Below, one piece after another: positions 3,671-57,955 of a DNA stretch of 64,000 nt. The notes under the pieces are model-generated. The model was not told where the DNA came from. It did not search any database and worked only from the letters and a program-made list of their open reading frames with translations. Position 1 is the stretch's first letter. Each line of letters opens with the position of its first letter. This stretch comes from Vicinamibacterales bacterium (GTDB taxonomy: Bacteria > Acidobacteriota > Vicinamibacteria > Vicinamibacterales > UBA8438): contig OZ241978.1 of NCBI GenBank assembly GCA_965204175.1, positions 5,478,164-5,542,163 on the forward strand, in the 5' to 3' direction. The position numbers and the translations under genes were made by a program.

Positions 3671-3800
3671 CGCGACTGCCTCTGTAAGTGACTGAATCTG
3701 AATACGCTTACGTGGGTCACTGGAAACAGTATCCCACGATATACTCCACAATGTCGGGAAAGCTCTGCCGGTGTCTGCGTTGAGGACCGCGGGAACTCGG

Positions 3801-8122: not shown

Positions 8123-8265
8123 GACAATAGCGCGCTCCGGATCATCCAGCCCTCCTGGGACCCCGGCCTTGGCAAGAGTCCCGCCACCGATGATCCGGTC
8201 CAGCGGCTGGCAGCCGATGCGTTTCCACTGGCGAACCGCACTCCGTGTAAGGTACCCGGCGGGTC

Positions 8266-14251: not shown

Positions 14252-14313
14252 TGCGGATGCCGTGGGGTTGATGGCCGGGGGTGGCCGGGTGACGGCCCGC
14301 GCGTTCTTCTAGA

Positions 14314-17727: not shown

Positions 17728-17880
17728 GGCGACTTCCGTTCGTCCTCGCCCCGAGCTGGAGCCGTGCTGGTGATTGCCGACCCGACGTTTCGTACACTAC
17801 GGCGTACGCCTCGTTCGCGTGCGCCGTCAATGTGGCGGTCGGTCGCCGGCCCTGTCCCGTTGCGCATACCGGTGTAATCG

Positions 17881-23768: not shown

Positions 23769-24530
23769 TTACGCGCCTCCCGTCGACTCTACCGAGGTGG
23801 TCCGCACTCGGGTGCGCCAGCTGCGCGGCCCGCACTTGAGCACGTGCGCGTGATGCAGGAGCCGGTCGAGCAGTGCGGTGACCGCGGCGGTGTCGCCGAG
23901 CAGCTTCCCCCACTCGTCGACCGGGCGGTTGGAGGTGAGCATCGTCGAGGCCCGCTCGTAGCGGCGCATGATCAGCTCGAGCAGGTCCTCGGCGGCGGTG
24001 TGGGGCAGCTTGCGCATGCCGAGGTCGTCGATGATGAGCAGGTGCGCGCGGGCCAGCTCGGCGAGGTAGTCCTTGCGGGTCTCGGCGAGCGTCGCCTCGG
24101 CGAGTTCTTCGAGGAAGGCGTGCGTTTCGCGGTAGAGGACGCGGTAGCCCTGCTGGATCGCGGCGCGTCCGATGGCCTGGGCAAGGTGACTCTTCCCGGT
24201 ACCGGGTTGGCCGATCAGGAGAACGTCCTCGCGCCGGGCGACGAAGCGTGCGGTGGCGAGCTCGAAGACGAGTGCACGGTTGATCTTCTTGTTGAACGCG
24301 AAGTCGAAGGCGTCGAGCGAGCGGTCGGGGTCCCGGAATCGGGCCTGCTTGTGCCGCCGGGCGAGCAGGCGGTCCTCGCGGCGCTGGAGCTCGTCGGAGA
24401 CGAGCGCGGCGAGCAGGTCGATCGGTGCCATCTGCTCGGTCTGGGCCTGCAGCAGGCGGGTTTCGAGGACATCGGCCATTCCGGAGAGGCGCAGCTTGCG
24501 CAGCGCCTGGTCGAGTTCGACGAGCTTCAT
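23769..24530 (-). CDS. istB: IS21-family helper ATPase IstB
   Basis: Walker A GQPGTGKSHLA, Walker B LLIIDDLG. The start overlaps the istA stop. Confidence 0.9.
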   Translation of the reverse strand: MKLVELDQALRKLRLSGMADVLETRLLQAQTEQMAPIDLLAALVSDELQRREDRLLARRHKQARFRDPDRSLDAFDFAFNKKINRALVFELATARFVARREDVLLIGQPGTGKSHLAQAIGRAAIQQGYRVLYRETHAFLEELAEATLAETRKDYLAELARAHLLIIDDLGMRKLPHTAAEDLLELIMRRYERASTMLTSNRPVDEWGKLLGDTAAVTALLDRLLHHAHVLKCGPRSWRTRVRTTSVESTGGA

Positions 24531-26116
24531 GAGGGGTCTCCTGTTCTGCGGTCGATCAGATCGCGGTAGACGGTCAGTTCGCGGATGAGCGGGTCGACCT
24601 GGCGCAACGACAGCGGCGGCGCGACGGGGTGGCGGTCGAGGTAGCGCTTCAGGAAGCGGTAGGTGGGCACGCCGAGTTCGAGCGCGGCGGTGGCGGCGTG
24701 TTCGACGACGGCGGGACCGTGCTTCCTGGCGAGGGAGAGGACGCCGAGGATGCGGCGGACGCCGGCGGCGCCCTCATGGCGGTGGATGTGGTCGCATACG
24801 GTGGAGATGGCGGGGCCGGCGCGCTTGGCGGCCGCGAGCAGGGCGAGGGTCTTCGGCGGGGTGCGGGCGGGCCGGTCGTCGTCGGCGATGCGATGCCAGC
24901 CGCGCTGCGTACGCAGGTGCTCGCGCAGCAGTTGGCCGGTGCTCGGGTCGAGGAGGCGGACGTGGATGTCGTCCCATTGCACGTCGACGCGGCGGCCGAC
25001 CCAGCCGGGCGGCGCCGAGTAGTAGGCCGAGGCGACCTCGACGCAACCGTCCAGATGCACACTGCGGCGGCCGTACTGGTAGTAGCGGAACGGCTCGATG
25101 GGCAGCGGTCCGAGCGCCGGACGCTCCTCGGCAAACATGGCGGCGACCTGGCGCTTGGTCGTGCCGTGGATGCGGGTGTCGGCCCAGCGCTGCTCCCAGC
25201 GGTCCAGATACGTCTGGCCGTCGTCGAGGTGCTCGAAGCGGAGGCCGCGCAGCGGCGTTTTCTGGGCGTGGCCGACGCTGGCTTCGACCTTGCCTTTTCG
25301 ATCGGGGTCGCGGACGCGGCACGGCAGCGCGACGACGCCGTAGTGGGCGAGCACGTCACGGTAGAGCGGATTCAGCGTCGGGTCGTAGATGTCCGGGGTG
25401 AGGACGCCCTCCTTGAGGTTGTCGAGGATGACGACGCGTACGGTGCCGCCCAGCCGGCGGAACGCCCGCTCGTGCAGCTCGGCCCAGACCTGGGCGCTGG
25501 AGCGGTGAACCAGCAGCCGGACGGCCTTGCGCGAGTAGCCCAGGGTGAGGACGAAGAGTCGTGTCCGCCGGTACTTGCCGGTGTCGGGGTCACGGACCAT
25601 CGGCCCCTCGCCATAGTCGACTTGTGCTTCTTCTCCCGGATCGGTGGTGATCACCGCCCGAGCCTCGACGGCGGGTTGCTGCCGGACGGTCGAGACGAAG
25701 CGCCGCACGCTCGTATAGCTCGCCGGGAAACCGTGGTCATCGACCAGGTCCTGCCAGATGGCCATGGCGTTGCGTCCGCGGCCGAGCGCGTCGACGATCA
25801 GCTCGCGGTAGGGCTCGCACGCGCTCGCCTGTGGTGCTCGACTGGGCCGTTGCGCGGGGACGGGTGCGGCGGCGGTACCCTTGCCGGCCTCGGTGGCCGG
25901 CGCAGAGTCGGTGGGCGCCTCCGGCGAAATGGCCGGATTTGCTGGTCGAGCGGGAGGGCGGCCACGGCCGCGCACCGTCAGACCGGCCGCCTTCAGGTAG
26001 TTGCTGGCGGTCTCGCGCCGGACCCCGGTGGCCTCTTCGATCCGCCGCAGCGACCAGCCGAGGCGTCCCAGCGCGAGGATCTGTTGTCGTTTCTCTTTGC
26101 TCAAGACGTTGCTCAT
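24527..26116 (-). CDS. istA: IS21-family transposase IstA
   Basis: 529 aa. N-terminal HTH (ILALGRLGWSLRRIEEATGVRRETASNYL) and a DDE core (QVDYGE..TRLFVLTLGYSR..VVILDNLKEGV). Confidence 0.9.
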   Translation of the reverse strand: MSNVLSKEKRQQILALGRLGWSLRRIEEATGVRRETASNYLKAAGLTVRGRGRPPARPANPAISPEAPTDSAPATEAGKGTAAAPVPAQRPSRAPQASACEPYRELIVDALGRGRNAMAIWQDLVDDHGFPASYTSVRRFVSTVRQQPAVEARAVITTDPGEEAQVDYGEGPMVRDPDTGKYRRTRLFVLTLGYSRKAVRLLVHRSSAQVWAELHERAFRRLGGTVRVVILDNLKEGVLTPDIYDPTLNPLYRDVLAHYGVVALPCRVRDPDRKGKVEASVGHAQKTPLRGLRFEHLDDGQTYLDRWEQRWADTRIHGTTKRQVAAMFAEERPALGPLPIEPFRYYQYGRRSVHLDGCVEVASAYYSAPPGWVGRRVDVQWDDIHVRLLDPSTGQLLREHLRTQRGWHRIADDDRPARTPPKTLALLAAAKRAGPAISTVCDHIHRHEGAAGVRRILGVLSLARKHGPAVVEHAATAALELGVPTYRFLKRYLDRHPVAPPLSLRQVDPLIRELTVYRDLIDRRTGDPS

Positions 26117-32110: not shown

Positions 32111-34565
32111 CTGCCCGTGCCCCGGATCTCGTGGGCTGGACTTTGTAATGCTGTGAGGTCATCCGAATTCGTCCCGCAGTTCGAAGGCGAAGGCCATGGC
32201 AACCAATTGCGTGTAGCCGTGCCACAGCAACTGGGCGCCGGGCGGGTCGCGTTGGCGTCCGAGCCACCCGCCGAGGCGCCCGACCAGACCGACAGCGTCG
32301 CCGAGGCGCGTCGGCGGCGGCAGCTTGCGTGAGCGGGCGAAGGTGGCGAGCACGCGCAACTCGCCATCGGAGAACAGCAGGTCGCCGGGCAGGTCGGGCA
32401 CTTCGCGCCCGAGTTGGACCATCAACTGGATGCGCCACCCGATGACCATCTTGATGGCCATGGCACGTTCGAGCCGCTCAGCCGAGTGGTGTTGCAACTC
32501 CTCGACCTTGCAGCCGGACTTGAGCACCCGGAAGTATTCTTCGATGCGCCAGCGCCGGGCGTACCATTGCAGGATGCGCGTGGCGTCGTCGGCGCTGGTC
32601 ACCCGCAACGTGGTCAGCAGGAACCACTCCAGCGGTGCGGCCGCAGGCGGCGGCTGTTCCTCGCGCACGTGGACGACCCACAGTTCGACCGGCGCGGCGC
32701 CGGGGCAGGGCAGGGCCACCTGCTGGTAGCGCAGCGTCACGTCGGCGACACGCGCCTCGCGGCGGTCCTTGCGGGCCTGTTTGCTGGCCTTCACGCGCGC
32801 GCTCAGCCGCTGCACCTCGACCTTTGCGACGCCTCGGGCCGGCGCGTTGCGCACCGTCTCGAACAGACGTCGTGAGACCGTCTGCCCGTCGGACGTCTTC
32901 TCCTTGCCCAAGACGCGGTCGGCCTTCGCGCGGACCAGCAAATCGACCTGCGGGGCGTTGTCGCGGTGTTCAAGGAACAGGTCGAGGAAGTCGGCCTCGC
33001 GGTCCATCACGCACACCACGCGGGTTTCGGACAATTGCTCGGCCGCCTGCGTGCAGTCGCGCAACCCCTCGACCCAACGGAACGACTTGCGCTCCTCGCG
33101 CGGCTTCGCGCTCGGCTTGCCTTCCGCCTCGGGGTTCGGGGGCGCGGGCGCGTCGAAGGCGGCCCGCAGCACGCCCAACGCCACCCCGTCGGGATTGACG
33201 GCCAAGGTCGTGTGCAACTCCAGGCCGCGCGCCACCGCCCCGGTCTGGTTCGAGCCGATGGCCCCCAGTCCCTGCGTCTGGCCGCGCCGGGTGAAGTTCA
33301 GCCGGGTGCCATCCTGGATGCACAGCACCGTGTCGTGCACCTGCATCCGGCGCAGCGTCCGCTCGCGATGCGGCGCGAGGATGTTGCCGACCGTCACCGC
33401 GCTGTCGGCGGGCTGGTCGATCAGCCGGTAGTGGCCTTTGACCAGGGCGCGCGCGCCGTGGGCGGCGCCGGTGATGGCGCGCATCGGAGACTCTGCCATG
33501 TGCTGCGCGCTCTGCACCAGCCGCGCGCTCAGCCGCGCGTCGCCCAGCCGCGCCCCGCCGAACTCGTGACCCGCCCAGACCGCGGCGTCGAGACCGTCGC
33601 CAGCCGCCAGCGGCGCGATGCCCGGTGCGGGCGCCGCGAGGCGCGCCCGCCACCCAGGCTCCAAGGCGTACATATACACTGCCTTGCGCGTTTCGGCCGC
33701 CGCGTGCGTGCGGTCCCCGCGCCCACGCCCGCAGGTCTCACCCACCCGAACCCAGTTGGCCGCGCGCACGCTCGCCCCGGTCTGTTCGGTTTCGTCGACG
33801 AACGTCTCCAGCAGCCAGGGGCGATAGCCGTGCAGACGCTCGCAGTCGTCGCCGACCGCGCGGGCGGCCCGGCCCAACAGGTGAGAGGCCAGGTTGCGGC
33901 ACCCGATGCCGGGGCGCACCAGCAACCGGCACAGTCCCAGCACCCGGTGCAGGTGGGTGCGCCGGCCCACATCGTCCCAGCCGATCCAGGCGTCGCGGGC
34001 CTGCAAGCGCAGCGCACACGACGCGAACCCGACCCCGCCCAGCCAGCCATGCGCCGAGTCCACCAGATACCGCAGTTGCGGGCCCACAAACGGACCGGCG
34101 CCGCGTGGATGCTCGTGCGCCATCAGCGTGTTCCAGACCCGGCGCTGTGCGTCGGTCTCCACCAGCACCAGCCTCAGGTCCCACAGCGCGCCGACCGTGT
34201 CGGGCACGTCCACGGCCGGCGCCACCGGGTGCGCCAGCACGCGCGGCGCACGGCGCGCACCGCCCCCAGAGCGCCGACATCGAGGCAGCAAGACATGGCC
34301 GGCCGCCTCCAGGTCGGTCAACGCCGCGCAGCAACTCGCGCGCTGCAACCGGCCGCGCCCATCACGGAAATCGAACGCTTCACAGACGTGGTCGGCGACC
34401 TGCCCGAGACTGTCAACGCCTTGCGAGACCGCCCCGTTCAGCACGTCGCGCAGTCGGGCGAGGTCGCCCCGCAGGCTGCGCCCGACCTGATTCTGCACCT
34501 CCACGCTGGCTACAGTAGCGAAGTGGCTTCATGAAGTCCAGCGAAAAGTTGTGGGGCACGGGCAG
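32111..34565 (-). mobile_element. IS4-family (Tn5/IS50-like) insertion sequence, 2455 bp, with an 8-bp target duplication
   Basis: Terminal IRs CTGCCCGTGCCCC (32111-32123) and GGGGCACGGGCAG (34553-34565). Direct repeat CGCTAGGT at 32103-32110 and 34566-34573. Confidence 0.85.
32159..34504 (-). CDS. IS4-family DDE transposase with an N-terminal DUF4338-like domain
   Basis: 781 aa. DDE region (LCIQDGT, VCVMDREAD, YARRWRIEEYFRVLKSGCK). The N-terminal ~290 aa (..HPRGAGPFVGPQLRYLV..LGGVGFASCALRLQARDAWIGW..WLLETFVD) resemble DUF4338. Confidence 0.85.
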   Translation of the reverse strand: MEVQNQVGRSLRGDLARLRDVLNGAVSQGVDSLGQVADHVCEAFDFRDGRGRLQRASCCAALTDLEAAGHVLLPRCRRSGGGARRAPRVLAHPVAPAVDVPDTVGALWDLRLVLVETDAQRRVWNTLMAHEHPRGAGPFVGPQLRYLVDSAHGWLGGVGFASCALRLQARDAWIGWDDVGRRTHLHRVLGLCRLLVRPGIGCRNLASHLLGRAARAVGDDCERLHGYRPWLLETFVDETEQTGASVRAANWVRVGETCGRGRGDRTHAAAETRKAVYMYALEPGWRARLAAPAPGIAPLAAGDGLDAAVWAGHEFGGARLGDARLSARLVQSAQHMAESPMRAITGAAHGARALVKGHYRLIDQPADSAVTVGNILAPHRERTLRRMQVHDTVLCIQDGTRLNFTRRGQTQGLGAIGSNQTGAVARGLELHTTLAVNPDGVALGVLRAAFDAPAPPNPEAEGKPSAKPREERKSFRWVEGLRDCTQAAEQLSETRVVCVMDREADFLDLFLEHRDNAPQVDLLVRAKADRVLGKEKTSDGQTVSRRLFETVRNAPARGVAKVEVQRLSARVKASKQARKDRREARVADVTLRYQQVALPCPGAAPVELWVVHVREEQPPPAAAPLEWFLLTTLRVTSADDATRILQWYARRWRIEEYFRVLKSGCKVEELQHHSAERLERAMAIKMVIGWRIQLMVQLGREVPDLPGDLLFSDGELRVLATFARSRKLPPPTRLGDAVGLVGRLGGWLGRQRDPPGAQLLWHGYTQLVAMAFAFELRDEFG

Positions 34566-37624: not shown

Positions 37625-37729
37625 CTACCAGCGCAGGCAGGGACCGCCGAGTGCGGCCAGGTCGTCGAGCAGGGGGACGTCCTGGCCGACGTGGGCGCCG
37701 ATGGCGTGGGCCGGTGTCGCTACGCTCAC
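37625..37729 (-). other. 34-codon micro-ORF ending in the shared tail ..VPLLDDLAALGGPCLRW (either a genuine peptide or the remnant of a third paralogue)
   Basis: GTG 37729-37727 overlaps the Lon TGA (GTGA). The last 17 codons and about 25 nt of 3' flank match the 3' ends of the genes at 43411 and 42147. Confidence 0.3.
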
Positions 37730-40700
37730 GCCTCCCGGCCCGGCGGGCGTTCGGCCGCCGAAACCGGTGCGCGCGGCGGCGCAGCGAGGTCCCGGGGTCC
37801 GGCCGGTGCGCGCAGCGCCAGCTTGAGGAGTTCGTCGACCCGCGTCACGTAGTCGATCTCGACGGCGCGCCGCAGCTCGTCGCCCAGCTCCTCGTCGACC
37901 TGTTTGCGGTTGGGTTGCGGCAGCAGGATGCGGGCCAGCCCGCCACGGTGCGCGGCCAGCACCTTCGCGGCGATGCCGCCGACACCGAGCACTTGTCCGG
38001 CGAGGGTGATCTCGCCGCTCATCGCCACGCCGGCACGGACCCGGCGCCGGGTGGCGGCGGACACCAGCGCGGCCGCCATCGTCACGCCGGCCGAGGCGCC
38101 CTCCTTGGGGACCTCGGCCGACTGCACGTGCAGATGGACATCGGTGTGGCGATGGAAGTGCGGGTCGAGGCCGTAGCGCGCGGCGTTGGCGCGCAGCCAC
38201 GCCAGCGCGGTGCGCGCCGACTCCTGCATGACCTCGCCCTGGCGCCCGGTCAGAGTCAGCGCCCCGGAGCCGGGCAGGCAGCTGGCTTCAACGACGAGCA
38301 CCGCGCCGCCGCCGCTCGCCGTGCAACACAGCCCGGCGGCGACGCCCGGCCGCCCGGCGCGAAGACCGGCGGCCTCGACGTCCGGCCCGGCCGGCGCGCC
38401 GAGCAGCTCGACGAGGGTCTGCGGCGTGACCTCGACCGGGGCGCCGCCGTTGACGGCGCGCCGGCGCGCCAGCCTGGCGCACAACTCGCCGAGCGCCGCG
38501 GCCAGGTGCCACACGCCGGCCTCGCGGGTGTAGCCGCCGATGAGGGCCCCGATCGCCTCGCCGGTGACGTGGACCTGCCCGGCCGTCAGCCCGTGGCGCG
38601 CCAGTTGCAGCGGCAACAGGCGCCGGGTCGCGATGACCCGCTTCTCCGCATCGGTGTATCCGGGCAGCTCGACTACGCGCAAGCGTTCGCGCAGCAACGC
38701 CGGCACGGCGGCGGGGCTGGTCGCCGTCGCCATGAAGAGCGCCTCGGACAGGTCGAGCGGGAAGTCGAGATAGCGGTCGCGGAAGGGGGCGGCGGGGTGC
38801 GGGTCGAGCGCGTCGAGCAGCGCCGCGGCGGCGCCGCCGGCTTCGTCGAGCCGGTCGACCTCGTCGAGGACGAACACCGGGTTGCGGACGCCGGCGCGCC
38901 GCAACTCCTCGACGATGCGTCCGGGCGCGGCGGCGCGGACGCCGTGCACCGCGGCCGAGCCCAGCCCGGCGCAGGACAGCCAGGCGCAGGGGCGGCCGAG
39001 GGCGGCGGCTACGAGCCGCGCCAGCGCCGACTTGCCCACCCCGGGCGGGCCGCTCAGGCAGAGCGCGAGGAACCCGGCGCCGGGGTTCGAGACGCGCACG
39101 GCGAGCTGGTCGAGCAGGCGCTGCTTGACCGCCTCGTGGCCGGCGTGCCCGGCGTCGAGGACCGCGTGCGCGCGCTCCAGGTCGAGCGGCGCCTCGGCGC
39201 GGGCCGTCCATGGCACGCTCAGGAGGCGGTCGAGATACTCGCGCGCCCGGTGACGCTCGGGGTCGGTGGGCGCGCATGCGGACAGCTGCGCGAGGACCCG
39301 CCGCCCCCGCACGCGCACGGGCCGCGGCAGCGCCGGAGCGTCGAGCCGCTGGCGGATGCGGCCGAGCCCGTCGGTGCCGGCGGCGTCCGGCTCGCCGAGG
39401 AGCGTACGCACCTGCGCCGCGGTGATGCGGTCGCGAACCAGCGCCGCGTCACCGGTCTCGAGCCCCAGCGCCACCTTGCGGCAGATCGCCTGCAGGCAGC
39501 GGGCGAACTGGCGCACCCCCTGCTCGCTGGTGTAGTCGCGGATGATGCGCCGGCAGGCGCCGTCGGTGAACCGCAGCGGCACGGCCTCGAGGCCGGCGGC
39601 CCGTTTCTGCGCGTCGATCAGGTGCGTCCGGGCGATGGCGAGCTTCTCGGCCTCGGCGTAGCCGGGCAGGTCGATGACCTCGAGCCGGTCGCGCAGCGCC
39701 GGCAGGATGCGGTCCGGGTCGTTGGCGGTGGTGATGAAGAGGACCTCGGACAGGTCGAACGGCAGCTCGACGAAGGCGTCGCGGAAGCGGTGGTGCTGGG
39801 CCGGGTCGAGCACCTCGAGCAGGACGGCGGCCGGGTCCGGGCCGAGCTTGTCGAGCTCGTCGAGCACGAAGACGGGGTCCTTGCGTCCCACCCGGCGCAG
39901 TTCGCGCAGGATGGAGCCGGGCTGCGCCCCCTTCCAGGTGCGGTTGTGGCCGCGCAGGTCCGTCTCGTCGCGCAACCCGCCGCAGGACAGCTTGGCGAAC
40001 CCGCGCCCGAGGGCGGTGGCGACGCACTGGGCCAGCGAGGTCTTTCCGACCCCGGGCGGCCCGCCGAAACAGATCACCGCGCCGGGGCCGCGCGGGTTGC
40101 GGCGGCGTACGGCCAGGTGCTCGACGATGCGCGTCTTGGCCGGCTCGAGGCCGGCGTGCCCGGCATCGAGCGCGGCACGGGCCTGCGCCAGGTCCGTCGG
40201 CGCGTCGCTACGCCGGTTCCACGGCAGCTGCTCGAGCCAGTCAATCCAGGCGTTCGACGCCGCGGCGTCGCCATCGGATGACTTCGCGAGGCGCCGCCGT
40301 TCACTCTCGATGGCGGTTCGCACGGCCGGGGGCAGCGCGTTGCCGTCGCCGTCGCCGAGCACCTCCCGCACGGTGGCCTCCGTGATCACCTCCGGTCCGC
40401 GACCCCCCGGCGGCCGGCGCGACACCACGTGGCGGCCGACCGCCGCCAGCTTCCGGTTCAGTTCGGCCACGCCCGCCTCGCACGTGTAGTCGCGGATCAG
40501 GCGGCGGATGGCCTCGGTCTCGAAGCGGACCTCGCCGTCGCACGCCGCGGTGCGCCACGCCTCGACGACCTCGGGTGGCGGCGGTTGCGCCGCGACCGCC
40601 TCCAGCTCCCGCGCCGACGCGACCTCCCGCTCGGCGACGACGGCCGGACCGTTGGGCGCGGCGGCCGGCTCGATACCCCCCGGCGGGGCCGGCAATCCCG

Positions 40701-41955
40701 GCGGCAGCCACGCCTCGGCGGCGGGCGCGGGCGCGTCGAAAGGGCGGGTCAGCAGGTGCTGTTGCGCGATCGCCAGCTTTTCCTCCTCGGTGCACGCCGG
40801 CAGCTCGACCACGGCGAGGTGCTCGCGCACCGGCTCGGGGACCGCGCCCGGATCGGTCGCCGTGACGATCCACAGGACCGCCGACAGATCGAACGCGACA
40901 TCGAGGTACGCGTCGCGGAAGGCGGTCCGGCGCGCGGGGTCGAGCAGGTAGAGCAGCGCCCCGGCGGCATCGGGTTCGACGCGGTCGACGGCCTCGAGGA
41001 TGAACACCGGGTTGTTGACGCCGGCCTCGCACAGGCCCTCGACGATGCGCCCCGCGGCGCCGCCCTCCGACCCGCGGACGAAGCGCTCGGCGTTCGCGCC
41101 CTCCAGGGTGGCGCGCACGTGGGTGCGGCCGAGGGCGCGGGCAACGGCCTCGGCCAGCGACGACTTCCCGGTCCCCTTCGGCCCGGCCAGGCAGAGGACC
41201 GACCCCGGCGCCTCGGGCGGTCCCGGTCGCACGGCCAGGGCCGGCACCGCGCCGACCGCGTCCGTCGGGCCGCGGCGGGGTCGTTCGACGGTGAGCAGGG
41301 CGCGGGTCTGCGGGCACGCGGCCAGCACGCCGCGGATGCGCGTCTTGACCTGCGCGAGCGCGCCGTGGGAGCGGTCCAGCGCCCGCTGCAGCCGCTGCGG
41401 GTCGAAGCCTTGCGGCTCGGATGTCCGCCACGGCAGGGCGAGCGCCTGCTCGGCCCGGCCCAGCGCCTCGCTGACCGCGTCGGACCGGAAGTCGAGAGCC
41501 TCGCGGACCTGCCGCCGCAGCGTCTGGCGGACAGCGGCGGGCAGGCCGGCGTCGTCGAGGGTGGCCAGCGCTTGGTCGACTTGCATATCAGAGGCGGCGA
41601 GTGCGCGGACAGCCGCCAGGGCCGGGCCGCCGGACCCGCCGCCGCCCCGCGGCGGCGGCGCGGCCCCGGCGGCGGGGCCGGCAGATGGCTCCCACGCCGT
41701 CTCGGGCGCGGCCGGGCCGGCCAGCAGAGCGAACGCCTGCGCCGAGTCCACGACCCGCGCCCGGCCGGACGCGGCCAGGTCGGGCAGCTCCCACCGGGCG
41801 CGCTGCTCGGCAGTGGTGACCACGCCGCAGCCGTTCGCCGGGCCGCGCTCCGCGCGGCCGAGCGTGTCGAGCGCCCGGGCGTATTCTTCCAGCGTCGCGG
41901 GATGGACGAGCAGCACGGTGGCCTCGTCGTCTCCCCGCAGCAGCTTTACACGCAT
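37726..41955 (-). CDS. Lon-like ATP-dependent serine protease with three tandem Lon-type AAA+ modules (1409 aa)
   Basis: ATG 41955 preceded by AAGGAAG. Walker A: GPKGTGKS (aa 258), GPPGVGKT (aa 632), GPPGVGKS (aa 969). Walker B: FILEAVD (degenerate), FVLDELD, FVLDEVD. S16 domain: PKEGAS(1288)AG and GGIAAK(1331). Confidence 0.8.
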   Translation of the reverse strand: MRVKLLRGDDEATVLLVHPATLEEYARALDTLGRAERGPANGCGVVTTAEQRARWELPDLAASGRARVVDSAQAFALLAGPAAPETAWEPSAGPAAGAAPPPRGGGGSGGPALAAVRALAASDMQVDQALATLDDAGLPAAVRQTLRRQVREALDFRSDAVSEALGRAEQALALPWRTSEPQGFDPQRLQRALDRSHGALAQVKTRIRGVLAACPQTRALLTVERPRRGPTDAVGAVPALAVRPGPPEAPGSVLCLAGPKGTGKSSLAEAVARALGRTHVRATLEGANAERFVRGSEGGAAGRIVEGLCEAGVNNPVFILEAVDRVEPDAAGALLYLLDPARRTAFRDAYLDVAFDLSAVLWIVTATDPGAVPEPVREHLAVVELPACTEEEKLAIAQQHLLTRPFDAPAPAAEAWLPPGLPAPPGGIEPAAAPNGPAVVAEREVASARELEAVAAQPPPPEVVEAWRTAACDGEVRFETEAIRRLIRDYTCEAGVAELNRKLAAVGRHVVSRRPPGGRGPEVITEATVREVLGDGDGNALPPAVRTAIESERRRLAKSSDGDAAASNAWIDWLEQLPWNRRSDAPTDLAQARAALDAGHAGLEPAKTRIVEHLAVRRRNPRGPGAVICFGGPPGVGKTSLAQCVATALGRGFAKLSCGGLRDETDLRGHNRTWKGAQPGSILRELRRVGRKDPVFVLDELDKLGPDPAAVLLEVLDPAQHHRFRDAFVELPFDLSEVLFITTANDPDRILPALRDRLEVIDLPGYAEAEKLAIARTHLIDAQKRAAGLEAVPLRFTDGACRRIIRDYTSEQGVRQFARCLQAICRKVALGLETGDAALVRDRITAAQVRTLLGEPDAAGTDGLGRIRQRLDAPALPRPVRVRGRRVLAQLSACAPTDPERHRAREYLDRLLSVPWTARAEAPLDLERAHAVLDAGHAGHEAVKQRLLDQLAVRVSNPGAGFLALCLSGPPGVGKSALARLVAAALGRPCAWLSCAGLGSAAVHGVRAAAPGRIVEELRRAGVRNPVFVLDEVDRLDEAGGAAAALLDALDPHPAAPFRDRYLDFPLDLSEALFMATATSPAAVPALLRERLRVVELPGYTDAEKRVIATRRLLPLQLARHGLTAGQVHVTGEAIGALIGGYTREAGVWHLAAALGELCARLARRRAVNGGAPVEVTPQTLVELLGAPAGPDVEAAGLRAGRPGVAAGLCCTASGGGAVLVVEASCLPGSGALTLTGRQGEVMQESARTALAWLRANAARYGLDPHFHRHTDVHLHVQSAEVPKEGASAGVTMAAALVSAATRRRVRAGVAMSGEITLAGQVLGVGGIAAKVLAAHRGGLARILLPQPNRKQVDEELGDELRRAVEIDYVTRVDELLKLALRAPAGPRDLAAPPRAPVSAAERPPGREA

Positions 41956-42533
41956 GCTGTGCACTTCCTTTCCACGATCGTTGTCCTGTTTCCCCAGCCG
42001 TCCCGCTCTTTCCACGGTCGTCCCGCTCTTTCCGCTACCGGACCGGGACGGTTCACCGGGCATCGGCGCAACAGTGCGGCCGTAGCGGTTCGGGGGTTCG
42101 AGCCGAGGCGCAGCGGGGCGGGCGCCCATGGCGCCGCCAGCAGCTGCCAGCGCAGGCAGGGACCACCGAGAGCGGACAGCTCGTCGAGCAGCGGGACGGG
42201 GTTCTGCGTGTCGGCGGACGCGCTTGCCGTCTCGGGTGCGTCGTCTTCCAGCGCGGCGCTCTCGAGCAGCGCCGTGATGGCGGCCTCGGCGTTGTTGAAG
42301 GCGTAGTTGAGCAGCCACCGCCGGCGGTTGAGGCGGCGGCTGCAGCGGCTGCTCTCGCGCGGGATGAGGCGGCCGCACGTGCCCGCCTCGATCGGCAGGT
42401 CGACGCCGGGACACAAGAGCTTGCGGTCGATGTCGGCGCGGATGCGGCGCATCAGCTCGCGGTTGGCGACCCGGCGGCGGAGCTTGCGCAGCCAAGCGCG
42501 CTGTCCGGGACGCAGCAGCTCGATGAGGGGCAT
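41946..42533 (-). CDS. small basic Cys-containing protein, paralogue A (129-aa conserved part plus a 66-aa read-through extension)
   Basis: GGAGGAG lies upstream of ATG 42533. MPLIELLRPGQRAWLRKLRRR..CPGVDLPIEAGTCGR..PLLDELSALGGPCLRW. CAG replaces the TAG found in the other copies. Confidence 0.55.
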   Translation of the reverse strand: MPLIELLRPGQRAWLRKLRRRVANRELMRRIRADIDRKLLCPGVDLPIEAGTCGRLIPRESSRCSRRLNRRRWLLNYAFNNAEAAITALLESAALEDDAPETASASADTQNPVPLLDELSALGGPCLRWQLLAAPWAPAPLRLGSNPRTATAALLRRCPVNRPGPVAERAGRPWKERDGWGNRTTIVERKCTACV

Positions 42534-42821
42534 GGGTTTTCTCCTCCGGGGAAGGGGAATGGCCCGACAGGGCCGGGTCGAGCGGGCCGACGGCCCGGGG
42601 GCGTGCCGTCTGGTGGCGGCCGGCCGCAGACGGCGTGGACGCGGGCGCGTAAGCGGAAGGCGTGAAGAAAGGGTGCAAAGCCCGGCGTGGCCTTGTCCGC
42701 CGGCGCCGTTGCCCTGTGCCGCTACGCGCGTTGCTGTTCCATTGTCGTCCGCCCGCCCGCTCCCCCCGTGGTCCGTCCCCCCGCCGACTCGGGGAGGCGC
42801 GGCGGCTGTGCCGGCAGGCTG

Positions 42822-43410: not shown

Positions 43411-43788
43411 CTACCAGCGCAGGCAGGGATCGGAGAGTGGGGACAGGTCGTCGAGCAGCGGCGTGCTCCGGGCGGCGTCCTCGGCCGGGGCGTCGTCGGC
43501 TGCGTCCTCGACGCGCTCGAGCAGCCCGACCGCGGCGGTCTCGGCGGGGTTGAGCGCGTGGTTGAGAAGCCACTGGCGCCGCACGTGGCAGGCGTAGCAG
43601 CGCTCGTGCGCGGGCCAGACGAGGCGACCGCAGGTCCCGGCGTCGAGCGGCAGATCGACGCCGGCGCACAGCCTCTTGTCGCGGTTGGCGGCCCGGTGGC
43701 GGCGCATGACCTCGCGGTTGGCGATGCGGCGGCGCAGGCGGCGCAGCCACTGGCGCTGTTCGGGGCGGAGCAGGTCGGCGAGAGGCAT
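43411..43788 (-). CDS. small basic Zn-ribbon-like protein, paralogue B (125 aa)
   Basis: AGGAGG lies upstream of ATG 43788. C41-x11-C53-x10-C64-x2-C67. Ends PLLDDLSPLSDPCLRW-TAG. Confidence 0.6.
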   Translation of the reverse strand: MPLADLLRPEQRQWLRRLRRRIANREVMRRHRAANRDKRLCAGVDLPLDAGTCGRLVWPAHERCYACHVRRQWLLNHALNPAETAAVGLLERVEDAADDAPAEDAARSTPLLDDLSPLSDPCLRW

Positions 43789-47492: not shown

Positions 47493-47635
47493 CGGCAAGA
47501 TGAAAAGGGACCCGGTGGCCATCTGAAAAGGGACCCCCTGAGCACTCAAGGAATGGCGTTCCTGCGGCGATGAATCGATGGGACGAGACACGGTCGTCTC
47601 GTCGATTCAGCCAGGAGGACGCGGAGGTGATCAGG

Positions 47636-49108
47636 ATGAGTCAGTGGGCCGAGATCCGCCATCTGCATCTGGTGGAAGGGGTACCGAAGAAGGAGATCGC
47701 GCGGCGTCTGAAACTGGACGTCAAGACGGTGCGCCGCGCCGTAGACCGGGCGACGCCGCCGGTGCGGGTGTCTCCGCCGAGGGCCGGCAGCCTGGACCCG
47801 TGGCGGGACCGGATCGAGCAGTGGCTGCGGGAGGACCGGAAGTTGACCGCGAAACGGATCCGCCGGTTGCTGCTGCCGTTGGCCGGAGCGGTTTCCCCGC
47901 GCACAGTGCGCCGCTACGTCGCGGCGCTGCGGGGGCGTGTCACGTCGAAGGAGGCCTTCGTGCACCGCAGCGTGGCTGCCGGCACGACGATGGAGGTCGA
48001 TTTCGGCGAATCGTGGGCCGACATCGCGGGGGCGCCGTGCAAGGTCAAATACCTGGTGGCGACGTTGCCGTACTCGAACGCGTACTTCGCCAAGGCGTAT
48101 CCGGTTGAGCGGCTGGAGTCGTTGCTCGACGGCATCGAGTCGGCCTTCCGCTATTGGGGAGGCATCGTCGAGCGCGTGGTGCTCGATAACACCTCCTTGG
48201 CGGTCAAGGACGTGCTGGCCGGCCGGGACCGGGTGCAGACCGAAGCGTTCGACGCGTTCCGGGGCGCGTATCCGTTGCGGGCCGAGTTCTGCGCGCCGGC
48301 CAAGGGCTGGGAGAAAGGTTCCGTGGAGGGAGGTGTCAAATACGTTCGGAATCTGGTGTTCCGGCCGCGGCTGGCGGTGGAGAGCTGGACCGCGCTGAAC
48401 GCGGCGATCCTCACCGAGCTGGAAGCCGACCTGCCGACGCGCCACCTCGACGACGGGCGCCCGGTGCAGGAAGCGTTGGCGCTGGAGCGGCAGCATCTGC
48501 GGGCGTTGCCCGAGCATCTTCCCGCCACCTGCCGCATCGTCGCCCGGGTGGCCGACAAGTTCGGCCATGTGCGGGTGGACCACGTCACCTACTCGGTGCC
48601 GGTCCGCCACGCCTACCGGCCCGTGTGGGTGAAGCTGTATCACGACCGGGTGGCGATCGCCGTCGGCGCCGAGGTGGTTGCGGAGCATCGCCGGGCGTTC
48701 AGCCGGGGCGCCAGGGTCCTCGACCCGTTCCATGTGCTGCCGTTGCTGGAACGCAAACACCGGGCGGTAACCGAGGCGACGGCGCTGGCCGGCTGGCGGC
48801 TGGCGCCGGTGTGGGAGCAAGTGCGGGCCGAGCTGGTCAGGCACACGCGCAAGCCCGATCAGGAATGGGTCCGGATGCTGCGGTTGATGGAGACGTACCC
48901 GGCCGCGGCCGTCGAACGCGCGGTGGCCGCCGCGCTCGAACGGCATTCGCCGCGCCTGGAGACGGTGCGGCTCCTCCTCCGGCAGCAGCAGGCAGGCCCG
49001 CCGCCGGTCTGCCCGCCGGTGACGGGGGTGCGCCCGGAGCTGGCGCAGATTACCGTGCCCACCCCGACGCTGTCGGCCTATGACGCGCTGGTGGAAGGGG
49101 GTTGCTGA
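47636..49108 (+). CDS. istA: IS21-family transposase IstA (track start 47570; ATG 47636 after GGAGGTG preferred)
   Basis: HTH WAEIRHLHLVEGVPKKEIARRLKLDVKTVRR. DDE core (MEVDFGE..KYLVATLPYSN..RVVLDNTSLAV). Confidence 0.9.
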   Translation: MSQWAEIRHLHLVEGVPKKEIARRLKLDVKTVRRAVDRATPPVRVSPPRAGSLDPWRDRIEQWLREDRKLTAKRIRRLLLPLAGAVSPRTVRRYVAALRGRVTSKEAFVHRSVAAGTTMEVDFGESWADIAGAPCKVKYLVATLPYSNAYFAKAYPVERLESLLDGIESAFRYWGGIVERVVLDNTSLAVKDVLAGRDRVQTEAFDAFRGAYPLRAEFCAPAKGWEKGSVEGGVKYVRNLVFRPRLAVESWTALNAAILTELEADLPTRHLDDGRPVQEALALERQHLRALPEHLPATCRIVARVADKFGHVRVDHVTYSVPVRHAYRPVWVKLYHDRVAIAVGAEVVAEHRRAFSRGARVLDPFHVLPLLERKHRAVTEATALAGWRLAPVWEQVRAELVRHTRKPDQEWVRMLRLMETYPAAAVERAVAAALERHSPRLETVRLLLRQQQAGPPPVCPPVTGVRPELAQITVPTPTLSAYDALVEGGC

Positions 49109-49893
49109 TGGCGACTACGACTATCGAGCCCCCGCACCTGGAGACGGACCTGAAGACGCTGTGCCTGTCGACGGTCGCCGCGCAGTGGCGGCCGCTGGCC
49201 GAGCAGGCCGCCCGTCAGCGGCAGGCGCCGGCCGACTACCTGGCCCAGTTGGTGCATCTGGAGGTGACCGAACGCCGGGAACGCCGTATCCAACGCCGCA
49301 TTCACGATGCCCGCTTCCCGATGCTGAAGACGCTCGACGCCTTCTCCTTCGAGGCGCAGCCGGAGTTGGACCGCGATGCGGTGCTGGCGGTCTTCGACTG
49401 CCGCTTCGTCGCCGACGCCGCCAACGTCGTGTTCGTCGGCGGCGTCGGCACGGGCAAGACGCACTTGTCCATCGCCCTGGGGATGGCCTGCTGCCAGCAC
49501 GACTACCGGGTGCGGTTCGTGACCGCAGCCGAGCTGGTCACGATGCTCGTCGAAGCGCAGCAGGAAGGCCGGCTGGCCCGCAAGCTCGCCCAACTCGCCC
49601 GCTTTGACGTCGTCATCTGCGACGAACTGGGCTACGTACCGCTCGACAAGGCCGGCGCCGACCTGTTGTTCGGCTTCATCAGCCAGCGCTACGAGCGCTG
49701 CAGCCTCGTGGTGACGACGAATCTGCCGTTCGCCCGCTGGTCCGAGGTCTTCCTCGACCCGACGGCGGCCGCCGCGGTCATCGACCGCATCGTCCACCAC
49801 GCGACGGTACTGCAGACATCGGGCAACAGCTACAGGTTACAGGCCGCAAAGCGGAACCAGACGCAGGCGTCCGGCAAGGAGGGAACACGTTGA
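49108..49893 (+). CDS. istB: IS21-family helper ATPase IstB
   Basis: ATG overlaps the istA TGA. Walker A GGVGTGKTHLS, Walker B VVICDELG. Confidence 0.9.
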   Translation: MATTTIEPPHLETDLKTLCLSTVAAQWRPLAEQAARQRQAPADYLAQLVHLEVTERRERRIQRRIHDARFPMLKTLDAFSFEAQPELDRDAVLAVFDCRFVADAANVVFVGGVGTGKTHLSIALGMACCQHDYRVRFVTAAELVTMLVEAQQEGRLARKLAQLARFDVVICDELGYVPLDKAGADLLFGFISQRYERCSLVVTTNLPFARWSEVFLDPTAAAAVIDRIVHHATVLQTSGNSYRLQAAKRNQTQASGKEGTR

Positions 49894-54691: not shown

Positions 54692-56568
54692 ATCGGGATA
54701 GGGGGGAGCCTCGCGGCTCCGCCCCTCCCACACCACCGTGCGTACGGGTCCGTACACGGCGGTTCGACGGAGTTAAGCGGCATGGCCTGCGGCGACGGAT
54801 GCGAGGCCGATTCGGGCGAAGAAGGCATTGGGCAGCGCGATGCTGAGTGCCGGGCTGCGGCTGATCCGCCATGGACCGTGGGCGCTGCTCGCGGTCTGGG
54901 CCGCAAGCCGCTTGCCGACGCCGCGACGGCGCAGCGCCGCGAAGCGAGTACTCCCACGCTTCCAGTGCGTCCAGGCGACGGCGCGTAGCCGCCGCCGTGT
55001 CCACTGGTCGAGGCGAAGCAGGACATAGGGAACCTCGCAGAGTCCGAAATAGCCCCGCCACCCAACGAGGTAGCGGGACAACTCCTCCACGAGAAGGGTG
55101 AAGCTGACGCCCTTCGTGCGGCACGTCAGTTCCCGAACCCGCGCCTTGAACCGGGCGAGCGCCTTCGGCGAGACGACCCGCTGGGGCGTCGGTCCGGCCG
55201 TGAAGCTGAAGCCCAGGAAAGCCCGCGCCGATGGGTGGTCCACCGCGCTCTTGGTTGCGTTCACTGTCAGTTTCAGCCGCCGGGCGAGGAAGTCGGTTAC
55301 GCTCGCCATGACCCGTTCGCCCGCCCGCCGGGACCGCACGTAGATGTTGCAGTCGTCGGCGTAGCGGACGAAACGATGGCCGCGCGTCTCCAGTTCCTTG
55401 TCCAGGACATCCAGCATCAGGTTCGAAAGCAACGGTGAGAGCGGCCCGCCCTGCGGCGTTCCCTTGGTTGTCGGGCCGACCAGCCCGCCGTCGAGCACGC
55501 CCGCGGTCAGGAAACCACGGATGAGCCTGAGCAGACGTTTGTCGGCCACCCGCTTGGCCACCAGCCCCATCAGGATGTCGTGATTGACCCGGTCGAAGAA
55601 CTTCTCCAGGTCGAGGTCGACGACGAAGTCGAAGCCCGCGAGGATGTGCTCCTGCGCACGCCTGACCGCCTGATGGGCCGAGCGTCCGGGCCGGAACCCG
55701 TGGCTCGCATCCGAGAAGCCGGGGTCCCACTCCTCCTGCAACACCTGCATCACCGCCTGCTGGATGAAGCGGTCGAGCACCGTGGGCACGCCGAGCAGGC
55801 GAACGCCGCCCGACGGCTTCGGTATCTCCACCCGCCGTACCAGCTGCGGTGTGTAGCTGCCGGCGAGGAGCCGGGACCTGATCTCGGGCCAGTGGGCCTT
55901 CAGGTGATCGCCCAACTCATCGACGGTCATCCCGTCGACGCCGGGCGCCCCCTTGTTGCGCCGGACACGCGCCAGCGCCTTCTTCAGATTGCCGGCTCGA
56001 CGACCGCCTCCATCGACGGTTCCGGCCCAGCCGCCGGGCGTTCGGGTTCGGCACGCGCCGTGCGGGCTTCGGTCCCTCGGGCGCCGGCACTCCGGGCTTC
56101 ACCCTTCGCCTCCGGCTCCAAGGCCAGCTCCAACTGGATGTTCTGCCGCCTGGTCCGCATGAGCGTTGCCGTCCTACTGACCCTGTCCGTCGTTCGGGCC
56201 TTCGCCGGCGAGCCGGCTACTATGCCCTCTGCTGACTTCTGCGCCGCGGTCACGGGCCTTGCGGACCCGCTCAGTCCGGGACTTCCGGACACGGCGCAGA
56301 CCTCCCGAGGTAAGACCGACCGCCTTCACTGCATCCCCGCCGGATTTACCACCCCGGCCCTTGATGGCTGCGGACTTCGCGGTTCCACGCTCGCTCGTCC
56401 GGCCGGGTAGGCCTCGCATCCGGTTCTTGTCCATCGGGTCGCAGCTTTGCTCCGCGCTTCCTTCAGACCCCGCCTCGCGACGACGCCCTTGCGCTTCGCT
56501 AATCCTTCGCCGCCATCAGGCTGGATAGAGGACTTGCACCTCCAAGCTGTCGGTCATGCTCGGCACAC
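54692..56568 (-). mobile_element. bacterial group II intron (boundaries approximate, +/- 10 nt)
   Basis: 5' end GTGTGCCGAGC (reverse complement at 56568). Typical domain I strings GGTGCAAGTCC and GAAGTCAGCAGAGGGCATAGTAGCC. Domain V-like hairpin around 54738-54775. Domain VI with a bulged A (54699). An RT/maturase ORF lies inside. Confidence 0.75.
54773..56160 (-). pseudogene. group II intron-encoded reverse transcriptase/maturase with a -1 nt frameshift near 55985
   Basis: MRTRRQNIQLELAL..SMEAVVEPA is in one frame. NLKKALARVRRNKGAPGVDGMTVDELGDH..YADDCNIYV continues in another. GCAATCTG is present where GCAAATCTG would restore the frame. Confidence 0.75.
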
Positions 56569-56932: not shown

Positions 56933-57955
56933 TCAGGCGGTCGGCAGCGGCGCGCGGTAGTACTCGTTCTTCGTCATCAGCGCCCAAGCGATGCGCGCCC
57001 TCCGGTTGGCCAGCGCCACCGCGACCAGCATGCGCGGCTTGCGCTCCAGCATCCGGGCCAGCCACGGGTCCTTCGTACCGCGCCGCGCGGCCCAGCCGAC
57101 TGTCGCCATCGCGCCGGTGACCAACAGCCGCCGGAGGTCGCGCTGACCCATCTTCGATATCCTCCCCAGCTTCGGCTTCCCGCCGGTCGAGCTCTGCCGG
57201 GGAACCAGACCCAGCCAGGCCGCGAAGTCCCGCCCCCGTCGGAAGCTCTCCAGCGGCGGTGCGAACGCCTGGATCGCCATCGCGCACAGCGGTCCGATTC
57301 CCGGGACACCCATCAATCGTTCCGTCCGTTCGTCTTCGCGCGCCCGCTCCCGCAGGTCCCTTTCCAGCTCCGCGATCTTCTCGTCGAGGTCGCCGATCTG
57401 AACGAACAACAGCGCGCCCAGCTCCCGAACCGGGCCCGGGAGTGGCGAATCGGCATCTTCAATCGCCTCCGCCAGCCGCTCCACGTGCGCAGGACCTTGC
57501 GGCGCGACGATGCCGAACTCCGCGAAGTGTCCCCGCAACGCGTTGATCGTCTGCGTGCGCTGGCGAACCAGCAGATCGCGCGTGCGGAACAGCATGCCTT
57601 GGGACTGCTGCTCCTGCGTCTTCACCGCCACGAAGCGCATCGTCGGCCGCGAGGCCGCCTCGCAGATCGCCTCGGCGTCGGCGGCGTCGTTCTTCTGGCG
57701 CTTCACGAACGGCTTGACGTAGATCGGCGGGACCAGCTTCACCTCATGACCGAGCTTCCCGAACTCTCGGCCCCAGTGGTGCGAGCTCGCACAGGCCTCC
57801 ATCGCTACGACGCATCGCGGCTGCGACGCCATGAAGCCCAGCACCTTGTCCCGACTCAGCTTCTTGCGGAACGCAACCGACCCGTCCGCGCGGGCGCCGT
57901 GCAACTGAAAACTCCGCTTCGCCAGATCGATGCCGATGATGGTAGCGTGCTCCAC
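56933..57955 (-). CDS. IS110-family (DEDD) transposase
   Basis: MEHATIIGIDLAKRSFQLHG..VVAMEACASSHHW..KNDAADAEAICEA..GVGPL-type C-terminal domain. Confidence 0.85.
   Translation of the reverse strand: MEHATIIGIDLAKRSFQLHGARADGSVAFRKKLSRDKVLGFMASQPRCVVAMEACASSHHWGREFGKLGHEVKLVPPIYVKPFVKRQKNDAADAEAICEAASRPTMRFVAVKTQEQQSQGMLFRTRDLLVRQRTQTINALRGHFAEFGIVAPQGPAHVERLAEAIEDADSPLPGPVRELGALLFVQIGDLDEKIAELERDLRERAREDERTERLMGVPGIGPLCAMAIQAFAPPLESFRRGRDFAAWLGLVPRQSSTGGKPKLGRISKMGQRDLRRLLVTGAMATVGWAARRGTKDPWLARMLERKPRMLVAVALANRRARIAWALMTKNEYYRAPLPTA

Follow-up and report, generated by a model that had tools for sequence, protein, structure and literature searches.

What a Lon-type protease might do with three ATPase modules in place of one is the question raised by a gene, here called Lon3, from an uncultured soil bacterium of the Vicinamibacterales (Acidobacteriota). 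The gene lies in a 64,000-nucleotide stretch of contig OZ241978.1, which is referred to below as the window. A 2022 review that classifies the Lon family describes all Lon chains as one ATPase domain followed by a protease domain (PMC9569914). Lon is the standard example of a machine with one chain, one motor and one protease, and each of the classified subfamilies A, B, BA and C has a single AAA+ module, in agreement with what an original prediction, made from the window sequence, had said of characterised Lon proteins. That prediction had read the gene product as a Lon-like protease with three tandem modules, a layout for which it knew no precedent. Full-text searches of the literature found no description of a multi-module Lon, and the three-module layout appears to be undescribed; the protein is no singleton, being one of about 90 unnamed clusters. 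We report here its domain content, motif states, intactness, family distribution and gene context. The best explanation, and one we hold to be probable, is that Lon3 is a functional LonA-derived ATP-dependent serine protease, predicted to form a hexamer with three coaxial AAA+ tiers.

Domain architecture of Lon3

The reading frame was found where it had been proposed, with the proposed length; its strand, left unstated earlier, is minus (Table 1). In the 1409-residue product, Pfam finds AAA in three stretches (1.3e-45), Lon_lid likewise in three (1.9e-35) and a single Lon_C at residues 1176-1382 (2e-59), in line with the predicted layout. To define the repeated unit, the sequence was aligned to P0095, a canonical LonA from an acidobacterium, and to 6on2, the solved LonA of Yersinia. 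It comprises a three-helix bundle ending in (L/V)PW, an alpha/beta core, and a lid with a C-terminal strand (...VTPxxVxExLG), and Pfam and these alignments together identify three whole copies of the LonA A domain. The motifs quoted in the prediction were all located. In units 1, 2 and 3, respectively, they are the linker ends LALPW (172-176), EQLPW (575-579) and SVPW (913-916), the Walker A sequences GPKGTGKS (K264), GPPGVGKT (K638) and GPPGVGKS (K975), the Walker B sequences FILEAVD, FVLDELD and FVLDEVD, and the lid motifs DYTCEAGV, DYTSEQGV and GYTREAGV. The Lon segment RGHNRTWKGAQPG is limited to unit 2. The Ser-Lys dyad of the protease domain is intact (PKEGAS1288AG and GGIAAK1331), its members 43 positions apart as are S679 and K722 of E. 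coli Lon. Alignment of 18 diverse members shows S1288, K1331, K264, K638 and K975 to be invariant.

The three units of the window copy are differently equipped. Unit 2 (U2), whose query residues 542-832 align to residues 12-307 of 6on2 at 254 bits, has K638, the pore-loop residue W674 (RGHNRTWKG), Walker B D699-E700, sensor-1 N745 and Arg finger R757, with S810 in place of Arg at the sensor-2 position. Unit 1 (U1) has a degenerate Walker B (E321-A322), a deleted pore loop 1, Thr at sensor 1 and H379 at the Arg-finger position. Two insertions are found in it, a beta-hairpin before the P-loop and a Pro/Ala-rich, low-confidence stretch of about 75 residues before the lid, and an AF2 model of the N-terminal domain with U1 has a pLDDT of 67. 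Unit 3 (U3) is fully equipped except for pore loop 1, which is deleted; its sensor 1 is Thr. The U3 lid and the protease domain align to residues 225-523 of 6on2 at 217 bits. Short linkers join the units.

No LAN domain is present, as had been predicted, since Pfam does not match PF02190 in Lon3. The chain begins with a domain of about 80 residues (N-domain), arranged beta-beta-alpha-beta-alpha, with the conserved signature VVTT..QR..W.LPDL. Its AF2 model has a pLDDT of 80, and a Foldseek search of PDB structures gave no match with an E-value under 0.26. The N-domain is shared with the two-module relatives P0103 and P0098; elsewhere, among 5.8 billion proteins searched with a profile, it turned up only in fragments or deletion derivatives of the Lon3 clade, and it is therefore a clade-specific domain distinct from LAN. 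Two short derivatives, P0355 and P0356, consist of the N-domain and the protease without any ATPase module.

The supported start of Lon3 is the ATG at 41955, because full-length homologues all open with MRVKLL and a ribosome-binding site, GGAAAGGAAG, is present 8 nt upstream. The frame remains open upstream as far as a GTG at 42903, the maximal open reading frame (ORF). This 1725-residue candidate was rejected, as its upstream in-frame part is Arg/Pro-rich and of low complexity, homologues start at MRVKLL, and a different frame of the region holds another small gene, C1. A scan for promoters and terminators found no sigma-70-type promoter, and no convincing terminator adjoining Lon3. The conserved leader carries direct repeats, GTGGAAAG(A/G), spaced by about 20 nt, the last of them overlapping the ribosome-binding site; they are kept in nine other loci and may serve as an operator or in the control of translation.

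Internal repeats invite a priori the suspicion of an assembly or sequencing artefact, and this is the only argument for one. The units had been called mutually diverged, and their pairwise identities of 33%, 40% and 43% in protein and 67-69% in DNA exclude a recent or assembly-made repeat. The identical layout recurs in dozens of independent assemblies from different samples, and unit-specific features are conserved across the family. We regard the chance that the triplication is artefactual as negligible, in line with the original assessment.

Table 1. Positions in the window of Lon3, its parts and the surrounding features.
Feature	Position	Strand	Remarks
Lon3 coding sequence	37726..41955	-	1409 aa plus stop codon 37726-37728; Pfam 3x AAA, 3x Lon_lid, Lon_C
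N-terminal domain, aa 1-80	41716..41955	-	small alpha/beta fold, not LAN; no Pfam match
Unit 1 (U1), aa ~136-520	40396..41550	-	3-helix bundle to LALPW, then AAA+ core, Walker A K264
Unit 2 (U2), aa ~521-860	39376..40395	-	canonical LonA-type motor by its motifs; best match to solved LonA AAA+
Unit 3 (U3), aa ~861-1175	38431..39375	-	K975, D1031-E1032, R1089, R1144 kept
S16 (Lon_C) protease domain, aa 1176-1385	37801..38430	-	Pfam Lon_C 2e-59; aligns to 6on2
Ser1288 codon	38092-38094	-	invariant in 18/18 sequences
Lys1331 codon	37963-37965	-	invariant in 18/18 sequences
Leader, conserved	41956..42060	-	3-4 direct GTGGAAAG(A/G) repeats
5.13-kb unit (C1 + leader + Lon3)	37688..42819	.	blastn against L001, L002, L004, L017
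C1, small Cys-rich ORF, ~129 aa	42147..42533	-	MPLI.LLRP...RRLR.RIANR...C..C..CxxC...DPCLRW
Second C1 paralogue	43411..43788	-	
Class-1 DISARM system	8266-21921	+	
DrmA	8266-11676	+	PADLOC 904 bits
DrmB	~11502-13472	+	Pfam MZB/DUF1998
DrmD	14314-17727	+	1008 bits
DrmMI	17881-21921	+	1286 bits
SNF2-helicase/Mrr-nuclease fusion	15-1556	+	
IS91 Y2 transposase	2930-3952	-	
IS21 (istA/istB)	23769-26116	-	
Tn5/IS4-type transposase	32159-34504	-	Tnp_DNA_bind, DDE_Tnp_1, Dimer_Tnp_Tn5
IS21 (istA/istB)	47570-49893	+	
Group II intron reverse transcriptase-maturase	54773-55930	-	
IS110 transposase	56933-57955	-	

Motif states across the family

Catalytic positions were tabulated in 78 three-module members of the family. 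The Walker A Lys is kept in 77/78 for both U1 and U2 and in 78/78 for U3. The aromatic residue of pore loop 1 is present in U2 as Trp in 74 members and Tyr in one, while the loop is deleted from U1 and from U3 in all 78. The Asp-Glu pair of Walker B is kept in U2 (75/78) and U3 (72/78); in U1 the Asp has changed to Glu in 72 of the 78, and the catalytic Glu is missing from 75. Sensor 1 is Asn in 74 U2 sequences, Thr in 68 U1 sequences, and mostly Thr, Ser or Ala in U3. The Arg finger is kept by every U2, by 63 U3 and by 36 U1 sequences, where it decays together with U1's own Walker B. A sensor-2 Arg occurs in 63 U3 sequences, in five from U1, and in four from U2, which has Ser in 67. Judged by these motifs, U2 is the sole complete LonA-type translocase among the three units, U1 looks like an ATP-binding, non-hydrolysing module, and U3 resembles an ATPase that has no loop to grip substrate.

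A sister group of three-module proteins (P0192, P0193, P0199 and P0203) has a dead Walker B in U3. In the two-module proteins P0103 and P0098, which have the N-domain, the protease-proximal module reads GPAGTGRT and LGELD, and the distal module keeps its pore loop. By their motifs, then, distant relatives show a shared trend toward degeneration of the module next to the protease. Several derivatives depart from the common layout: P0086, P0169 and P0173 (1218-1220 aa) have three modules, a degenerate U2 and no protease domain, and P0074 (L081:10001-13786) is truncated and fused in frame with a fragment of an MmeI-type methyltransferase.

Predicted assembly

The solved Lon structures among the entries found are all hexamers built on the S16 ring, and the tandem AAA+ modules of ClpA, ClpB and p97 stack coaxially. 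By analogy with both, we think it likely that Lon3 hexamerises through its S16 domains, with three coaxial AAA+ tiers placed over the protease chamber. Arg fingers work in trans, each reaching the next module of its own ring. The pattern of Arg-finger conservation is suggestive of stacked homotypic rings and not of a planar heterotypic ring, because the only invariant Arg finger, that of U2, belongs to the only invariant active site, also that of U2, and because the finger of U1 is lost in step with U1's own Walker B.

The same protein could in principle assemble in another way, with the modules of one chain side by side and two chains completing a pseudo-hexameric ring like that of dynein or midasin, or in some other heterotypic arrangement. 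Dynein and midasin establish that tandem AAA+ modules of one chain can make a single ring, and the short linkers between units would suit one. In a planar U1-U2-U3 ring, however, the U2 site would need an Arg finger from U1 (36/78) or U3 (63/78), neither of which is conserved, whereas U2's own is kept in 78/78. Two such chains would provide just two S16 domains, yet every solved Lon protease chamber is hexameric, and every unit retains its own three-helix bundle, which in LonA is located above the ring. We consider a planar or other heterotypic assembly very unlikely.

Within a stacked hexamer, the stacking and the roles of the tiers being what we infer, U2 would form the middle tier and act as the substrate translocase, because it alone combines the aromatic pore loop with a catalytic set conserved in full. 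U1, the top tier, would bind ATP without hydrolysing it, and together with the N-domain is probably a nucleotide-stabilised assembly or substrate-selection platform. U3, proximal to the protease and without a pore loop, probably can hydrolyse ATP in the window copy, and would not pull on substrate; its role would be that of a spacer, or of an allosteric gate, between the motor and the chamber.

Family distribution and evolution

Protein searches recovered about 90 clusters (at 90% identity) of proteins of 1370-1460 residues with the same Pfam content, 50-95% identical, for which the sole name given is "AAA family ATPase [Acidobacteria bacterium]". Locus counts refer to the best 40 loci in a species-representative genome collection, each taken with +/-10 kb. 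Almost all belong to Vicinamibacterales metagenome-assembled genomes, most of them ranging from contig-level to chromosome-scale, with two to six copies per genome at scattered positions. About 20 of the 40 loci hold an intact ORF of 1390-1430 residues, down to about 50% identity; in about six, a serine-recombinase element splits the gene, and about 11 are fragmented.

A neighbour-joining tree of modules, rough in that it uses BLOSUM distances and has long branches, places U1, U2 and U3 of the window family in one clade each, so that a single triplication is indicated before the family diversified. In several other lineages, the modules within one protein are mutual closest relatives, which argues that the Lon module was duplicated independently several times. 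A phmmer search with U2 against 1.84 billion representatives, with modules parsed by a module profile, gave 30 proteins with two Lon-type modules and 10 with three among the best 150 representatives (50% identity). Multi-module Lon proteins in the databases thus comprise a multi-member, unnamed Lon3 family together with proteins of other lineages in which tandem modules arose on their own. Raw BLAST cannot settle whether the first module of two-module relatives should be assigned to U1 or U2, since slowly evolving LonA gives the top score for every module.

Proteins with two or three Lon-type modules from uncultured lineages include P0178, P0182, P0191, P0176 and P0208; P0178, from Candidatus Dependentiae, is a compact 1113-residue protein with three AAA modules and Lon_C, and P0208, from Elusimicrobia, is a multi-module protein of 3865 residues. 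Two distinct two-module Lon genes, L082:2564-6058 and 7829-12010, lie 1.7 kb apart on a 113-kb Bryobacterales contig, and a three-module gene, L019, lies on the same contig, so that multi-module Lon paralogues cluster there. An origin in phages or plasmids was rejected, as IMG/VR contains no relative of Lon3 and the phage and plasmid collections gave matches only to ordinary single-module lon genes, spanning 1.0-1.9 kb.

Six paralogues in five genomes are interrupted precisely at Walker A codons (GGGCCGCC^CGGGGT). The insertions in L014, L021, L027 and L032 are at the U2 site, and those in L033 and L028 at the U3 site, which lies one repeat period (1011 bp) downstream. The inserted element is 2.58 kb long (L021:10477-13056, L014:11416-13989, L033:12889-15501), and its sole ORF, antisense, encodes a large serine recombinase of 686 residues (Resolvase, Recombinase, Zn_ribbon_recom, HTH_17), by which a group II intron or an intein was rejected as the identity of the insertion. 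The junctions fit a CC crossover dinucleotide, and the uninterrupted Walker A site, as precise excision of the element would restore it, is GGGCCGCCCGGGGT. The element also occurs outside Lon3, at L035:17797-19860. It is absent from the window, where Lon3 is uninterrupted. It might act as a switch that interrupts the gene reversibly, or be a parasite that specialises in the Lon3 family.

Pairwise ratios of nonsynonymous to synonymous substitution (dN/dS) against the window gene are 0.39-0.56 overall and below 1 in every domain, with the lowest dN in U2 in seven of nine comparisons. These values, at 0.4-0.55, might mark Lon3 as a passenger of mobile DNA that is amplified selfishly and is decaying, with many copies, possibly including that in the window, no longer functional. 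The copies are multiple and have unrelated flanks; about 6/40 loci are split by the element and about 11/40 are fragmented; many N-terminal fragments are present in databases; one subgroup, typified by P0086, has lost its protease and has a degenerate U2; and C1, the neighbour of Lon3 in the window, no longer has a stop codon. Set against this, the window gene is an uninterrupted ORF of 4.2 kb in surroundings of 76% GC, and it retains every catalytic residue of U2, of U3 and of the protease. The catalytic residues are invariant across lineages that have diverged by about 50%, which requires long-term purifying selection, and a GC content of 0.88 at third codon positions (GC3) plausibly lowers dS and so inflates dN/dS. 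That Lon3 is such a passenger seems to us quite unlikely.

Gene neighbourhood

A subfamily about 52% identical to Lon3 (L018, L019, L020, L022, L032, L035 and L036) has a divergent LexA-type gene directly upstream in all seven loci. Its product has LexA_DNA_bind and Peptidase_S24 domains, an intact VAAG autocleavage motif, and the GDSM Ser and Lys. A conserved 91-residue ORF lies downstream of Lon3 in 5/7 of these loci; an unclustered ORF of about 100 residues replaces it in L019 and L022, and L036 ends at a contig edge. The intergenic region between the LexA-type gene and Lon3 is 131 nt long; it contains the -35/-10 pair TTGACA-N17-TCCAAT, whose spacer holds a near-palindrome, CC(A/G)GTACTGG. 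One genome holds two of these cassettes (L018 and L032), so that the repressor travels with the protease. The cassettes span approximately positions 9200-14600 in each locus.

A blastn comparison of the window with L001, L002, L004 and L017 revealed that a 5.13-kb unit recurs at 91-96% DNA identity between unrelated flanks. The C1 ORF within it is marked by a basic N-terminal helix, a C..C..CxxC pattern and a DPCLRW terminus, and had no match in Pfam or PADLOC. The copy adjoining Lon3 in the window has CAG in place of its TAG stop, and its frame continues to 41946. Copies of C1 are found on both sides of Lon3 in L001, L002 and L017.

Examination of neighbouring genes found mobile and defence elements in the window and no partner conserved across the family. 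ORF clustering over the 40 loci yielded no universal partner gene; the partners found are lineage-specific only, C1 in one case and the LexA-like gene with the 91-residue ORF in the other. DISARM and Lon3 showed no co-conservation at the other loci. Many of the mobile and defence segments of the window do recur beside Lon3 copies of other genomes, rearranged, at 88-97% identity. The first 170 or so residues of the Tn5/IS4 transposase form a DruA-like (Druantia) domain at its N terminus, and this combination recurs near Lon3 copies in L081 (4042-6213), L017, L030 and L031.

Such surroundings raise the possibility that Lon3 is an effector against phages or mobile elements, like BrxL or CRISPR-associated Lon, and not a protease of stress response or quality control. 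A DISARM system that looks complete is 16 kb away from the window gene, within an island filled with insertion sequences (IS), the family member in L081 lies among genes for type IIG restriction-modification and HNH proteins, one subfamily has the LexA-type repressor cassette, and paralogue expansion with fast evolution is typical of conflict genes. Nevertheless, PADLOC matches only generic protease and P-loop parts of Lon3 (BrxL at 54 bits, on the protease domain), the NCBIfam model TIGR02653 scores 49.7 against 628, no defence gene is consistently adjacent in the 40 loci, and two transposons lie between DISARM and Lon3, which are not conserved together. We regard a dedicated defence role as a tenable possibility, if on the unlikely side.

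Proposed role

The scattered copies, unrelated flanks, IS and defence neighbours and LexA cassette mark Lon3 as an accessory, horizontally shuffled gene, and probably a regulated one. It would thus be no housekeeping Lon, being multi-copy, fast-evolving and located in regions rich in mobile elements and defence genes, and in one subfamily it would be under a LexA-type repressor cleavable on DNA damage. This context suggests regulated degradation of specific targets under stress or genetic conflict, and a role of Lon3 in either is plausible. The physiological role is, like the stacking, something we infer.

Several observations weigh against a functional, three-tiered protease with such a role. 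Stacking is predicted from the analogy to LonA hexamers and to type II AAA+ proteins and from the joint decay of motifs. U1 of the window copy has His at the Arg-finger position, and PAC where PGY would be expected. U2 is without a sensor-2 Arg (Ser in 67/78), a residue that matters for the ATPase activity of E. coli Lon, and given this loss U2 may run more slowly as a motor or be regulated in another way. Interruption, frameshift or truncation affects about half of the related loci, which could reflect frequent decay, although errors of long-read sequencing may contribute, and a dN/dS of 0.4-0.55 is high for an enzyme. With no family-wide partner gene, and no presence in viral, phage or plasmid collections, the physiological role is argued through guilt by association.

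The fullest version of the proposal would make Lon3 a new Lon subfamily in which a motor ring (U2) sits between an ATP-locked, dead sensor ring (U1 with the N-domain) and a pore-less gating ring (U3), serving as a conflict- or SOS-linked effector of mobile DNA, derepressed by LexA cleavage in one lineage, and switched off and on by the serine-recombinase element that integrates at the P-loop codons and may excise from them. Taken as a whole, this version is unlikely.

If a Lon with three tiers and pore loops in only one of them does exist, it would provide a test of how a ring communicates with a protease across a passive ring, of what hydrolysis-dead AAA+ rings are for, and of how stacked type II AAA+ proteins arise by duplication within a single family. 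The independent duplications of Lon modules in several uncultured phyla suggest a recurrent selective advantage. Multi-copy status, the defence and IS island, the LexA cassette and the P-loop recombinase point to a regulated role beyond bulk quality control.

Comparison with known systems

In keeping with the MEROPS description of family S16, Lon3 has a C-terminal S16 domain with a Ser-Lys dyad, and AAA+ sequence N-terminal to the protease in the same chain; the dyad residues of S16 are described as separated by 42 residues (PMC9569914). Placement within LonA is another matter. Pfam and the module profile (three envelopes) find three modules instead of one, and PF02190, present in single-module relatives as part of an extended N-terminal region, is absent here. 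The A-type active site has Pro before the catalytic Ser, ...DGPSAG (PMC9569914), whereas Lon3 has PKEGAS1288AG and the family consensus is PKEGASAG. The model TIGR00763 ("lon") scores 952 bits against a cut-off of 608, a score summed over four stretches of repeated modules, and PRK10787 scores 756, below its cut-off of 891.

Membership in LonB, LonC or BrxL was ruled out by NCBIfam and PADLOC scores. LonB is marked by B-type modules, a membrane anchor inserted in the AAA+ core and Asp before the catalytic Ser; the LonB models TIGR00764 and TIGR02902 score 75 against 517 and 77 against 723, and the residue before Ser1288 is Ala, not Asp. LonC is marked by one ATPase-dead AAA-like module that bears a helical hairpin extension; the LonC model TIGR02903 scores 68 against 679, and U2 has all catalytic motifs. 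The PADLOC match to BrxL, at 54 bits, covers the protease domain only, and TIGR02653 scores 49.7 against a cut-off of 628. BrxL and CRISPR-associated Lon proteins such as CalpL resemble Lon3 in having an S16-type protease domain in defence contexts. No BREX, CARF or SAVED partner of Lon3 was found; its neighbours in the window are DISARM and IS elements. LonC of Meiothermus taiwanensis has an AAA-like module without ATPase activity (PMC3391209, PMC13069640), a precedent for a degenerate, non-hydrolysing Lon module such as U1 appears to be. LonC differs in having that single degenerate module and no active motor, where Lon3 has dead and canonical modules together.

The closest likeness is to LonA, known or solved from E. 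coli, Yersinia pestis (6on2/6v11), Meiothermus taiwanensis and human (LONP1). Shared features are an A-type AAA+ module that follows a three-helix bundle ending in LPW, the Lon lid, and an A-type S16 dyad with its residues 43 apart. Identity to LonA is about 50% for U2, over the ATPase, and about 48% for the U3 lid with the protease. The differences are that Lon3 has three A domains, no LAN/PUA-like N-domain and no long coiled-coil helix, has PKEGASAG instead of PKDGPSAG, lacks pore loop 1 in the module next to the protease, and has a four-residue deletion in the pore-loop-2 region of all three units.

Lon3 shares with type II AAA+ proteins the presence of two or more AAA+ modules per chain. 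The unfoldases of this type (ClpA, ClpB/Hsp104, ClpC, p97/Cdc48 and NSF) have tandem modules in stacked coaxial hexameric rings, one of which is often mainly structural or ATP-binding while the other is the principal motor. They have two tiers, drawn from different AAA+ clades (classic and HCLR) and not from a recent duplication within one family, and no attached protease, and the stacking of Lon3 is by comparison a prediction. Three tandem P-loop ATPase domains per chain, in stacked hexameric tiers of which only some are active, are found in the EccC/FtsK-type ATPases of type VII secretion. These are FtsK/RecA-like and not AAA+, are bound to the membrane and have no protease, whereas Lon3, judged by its sequence, is clearly LonA-derived.

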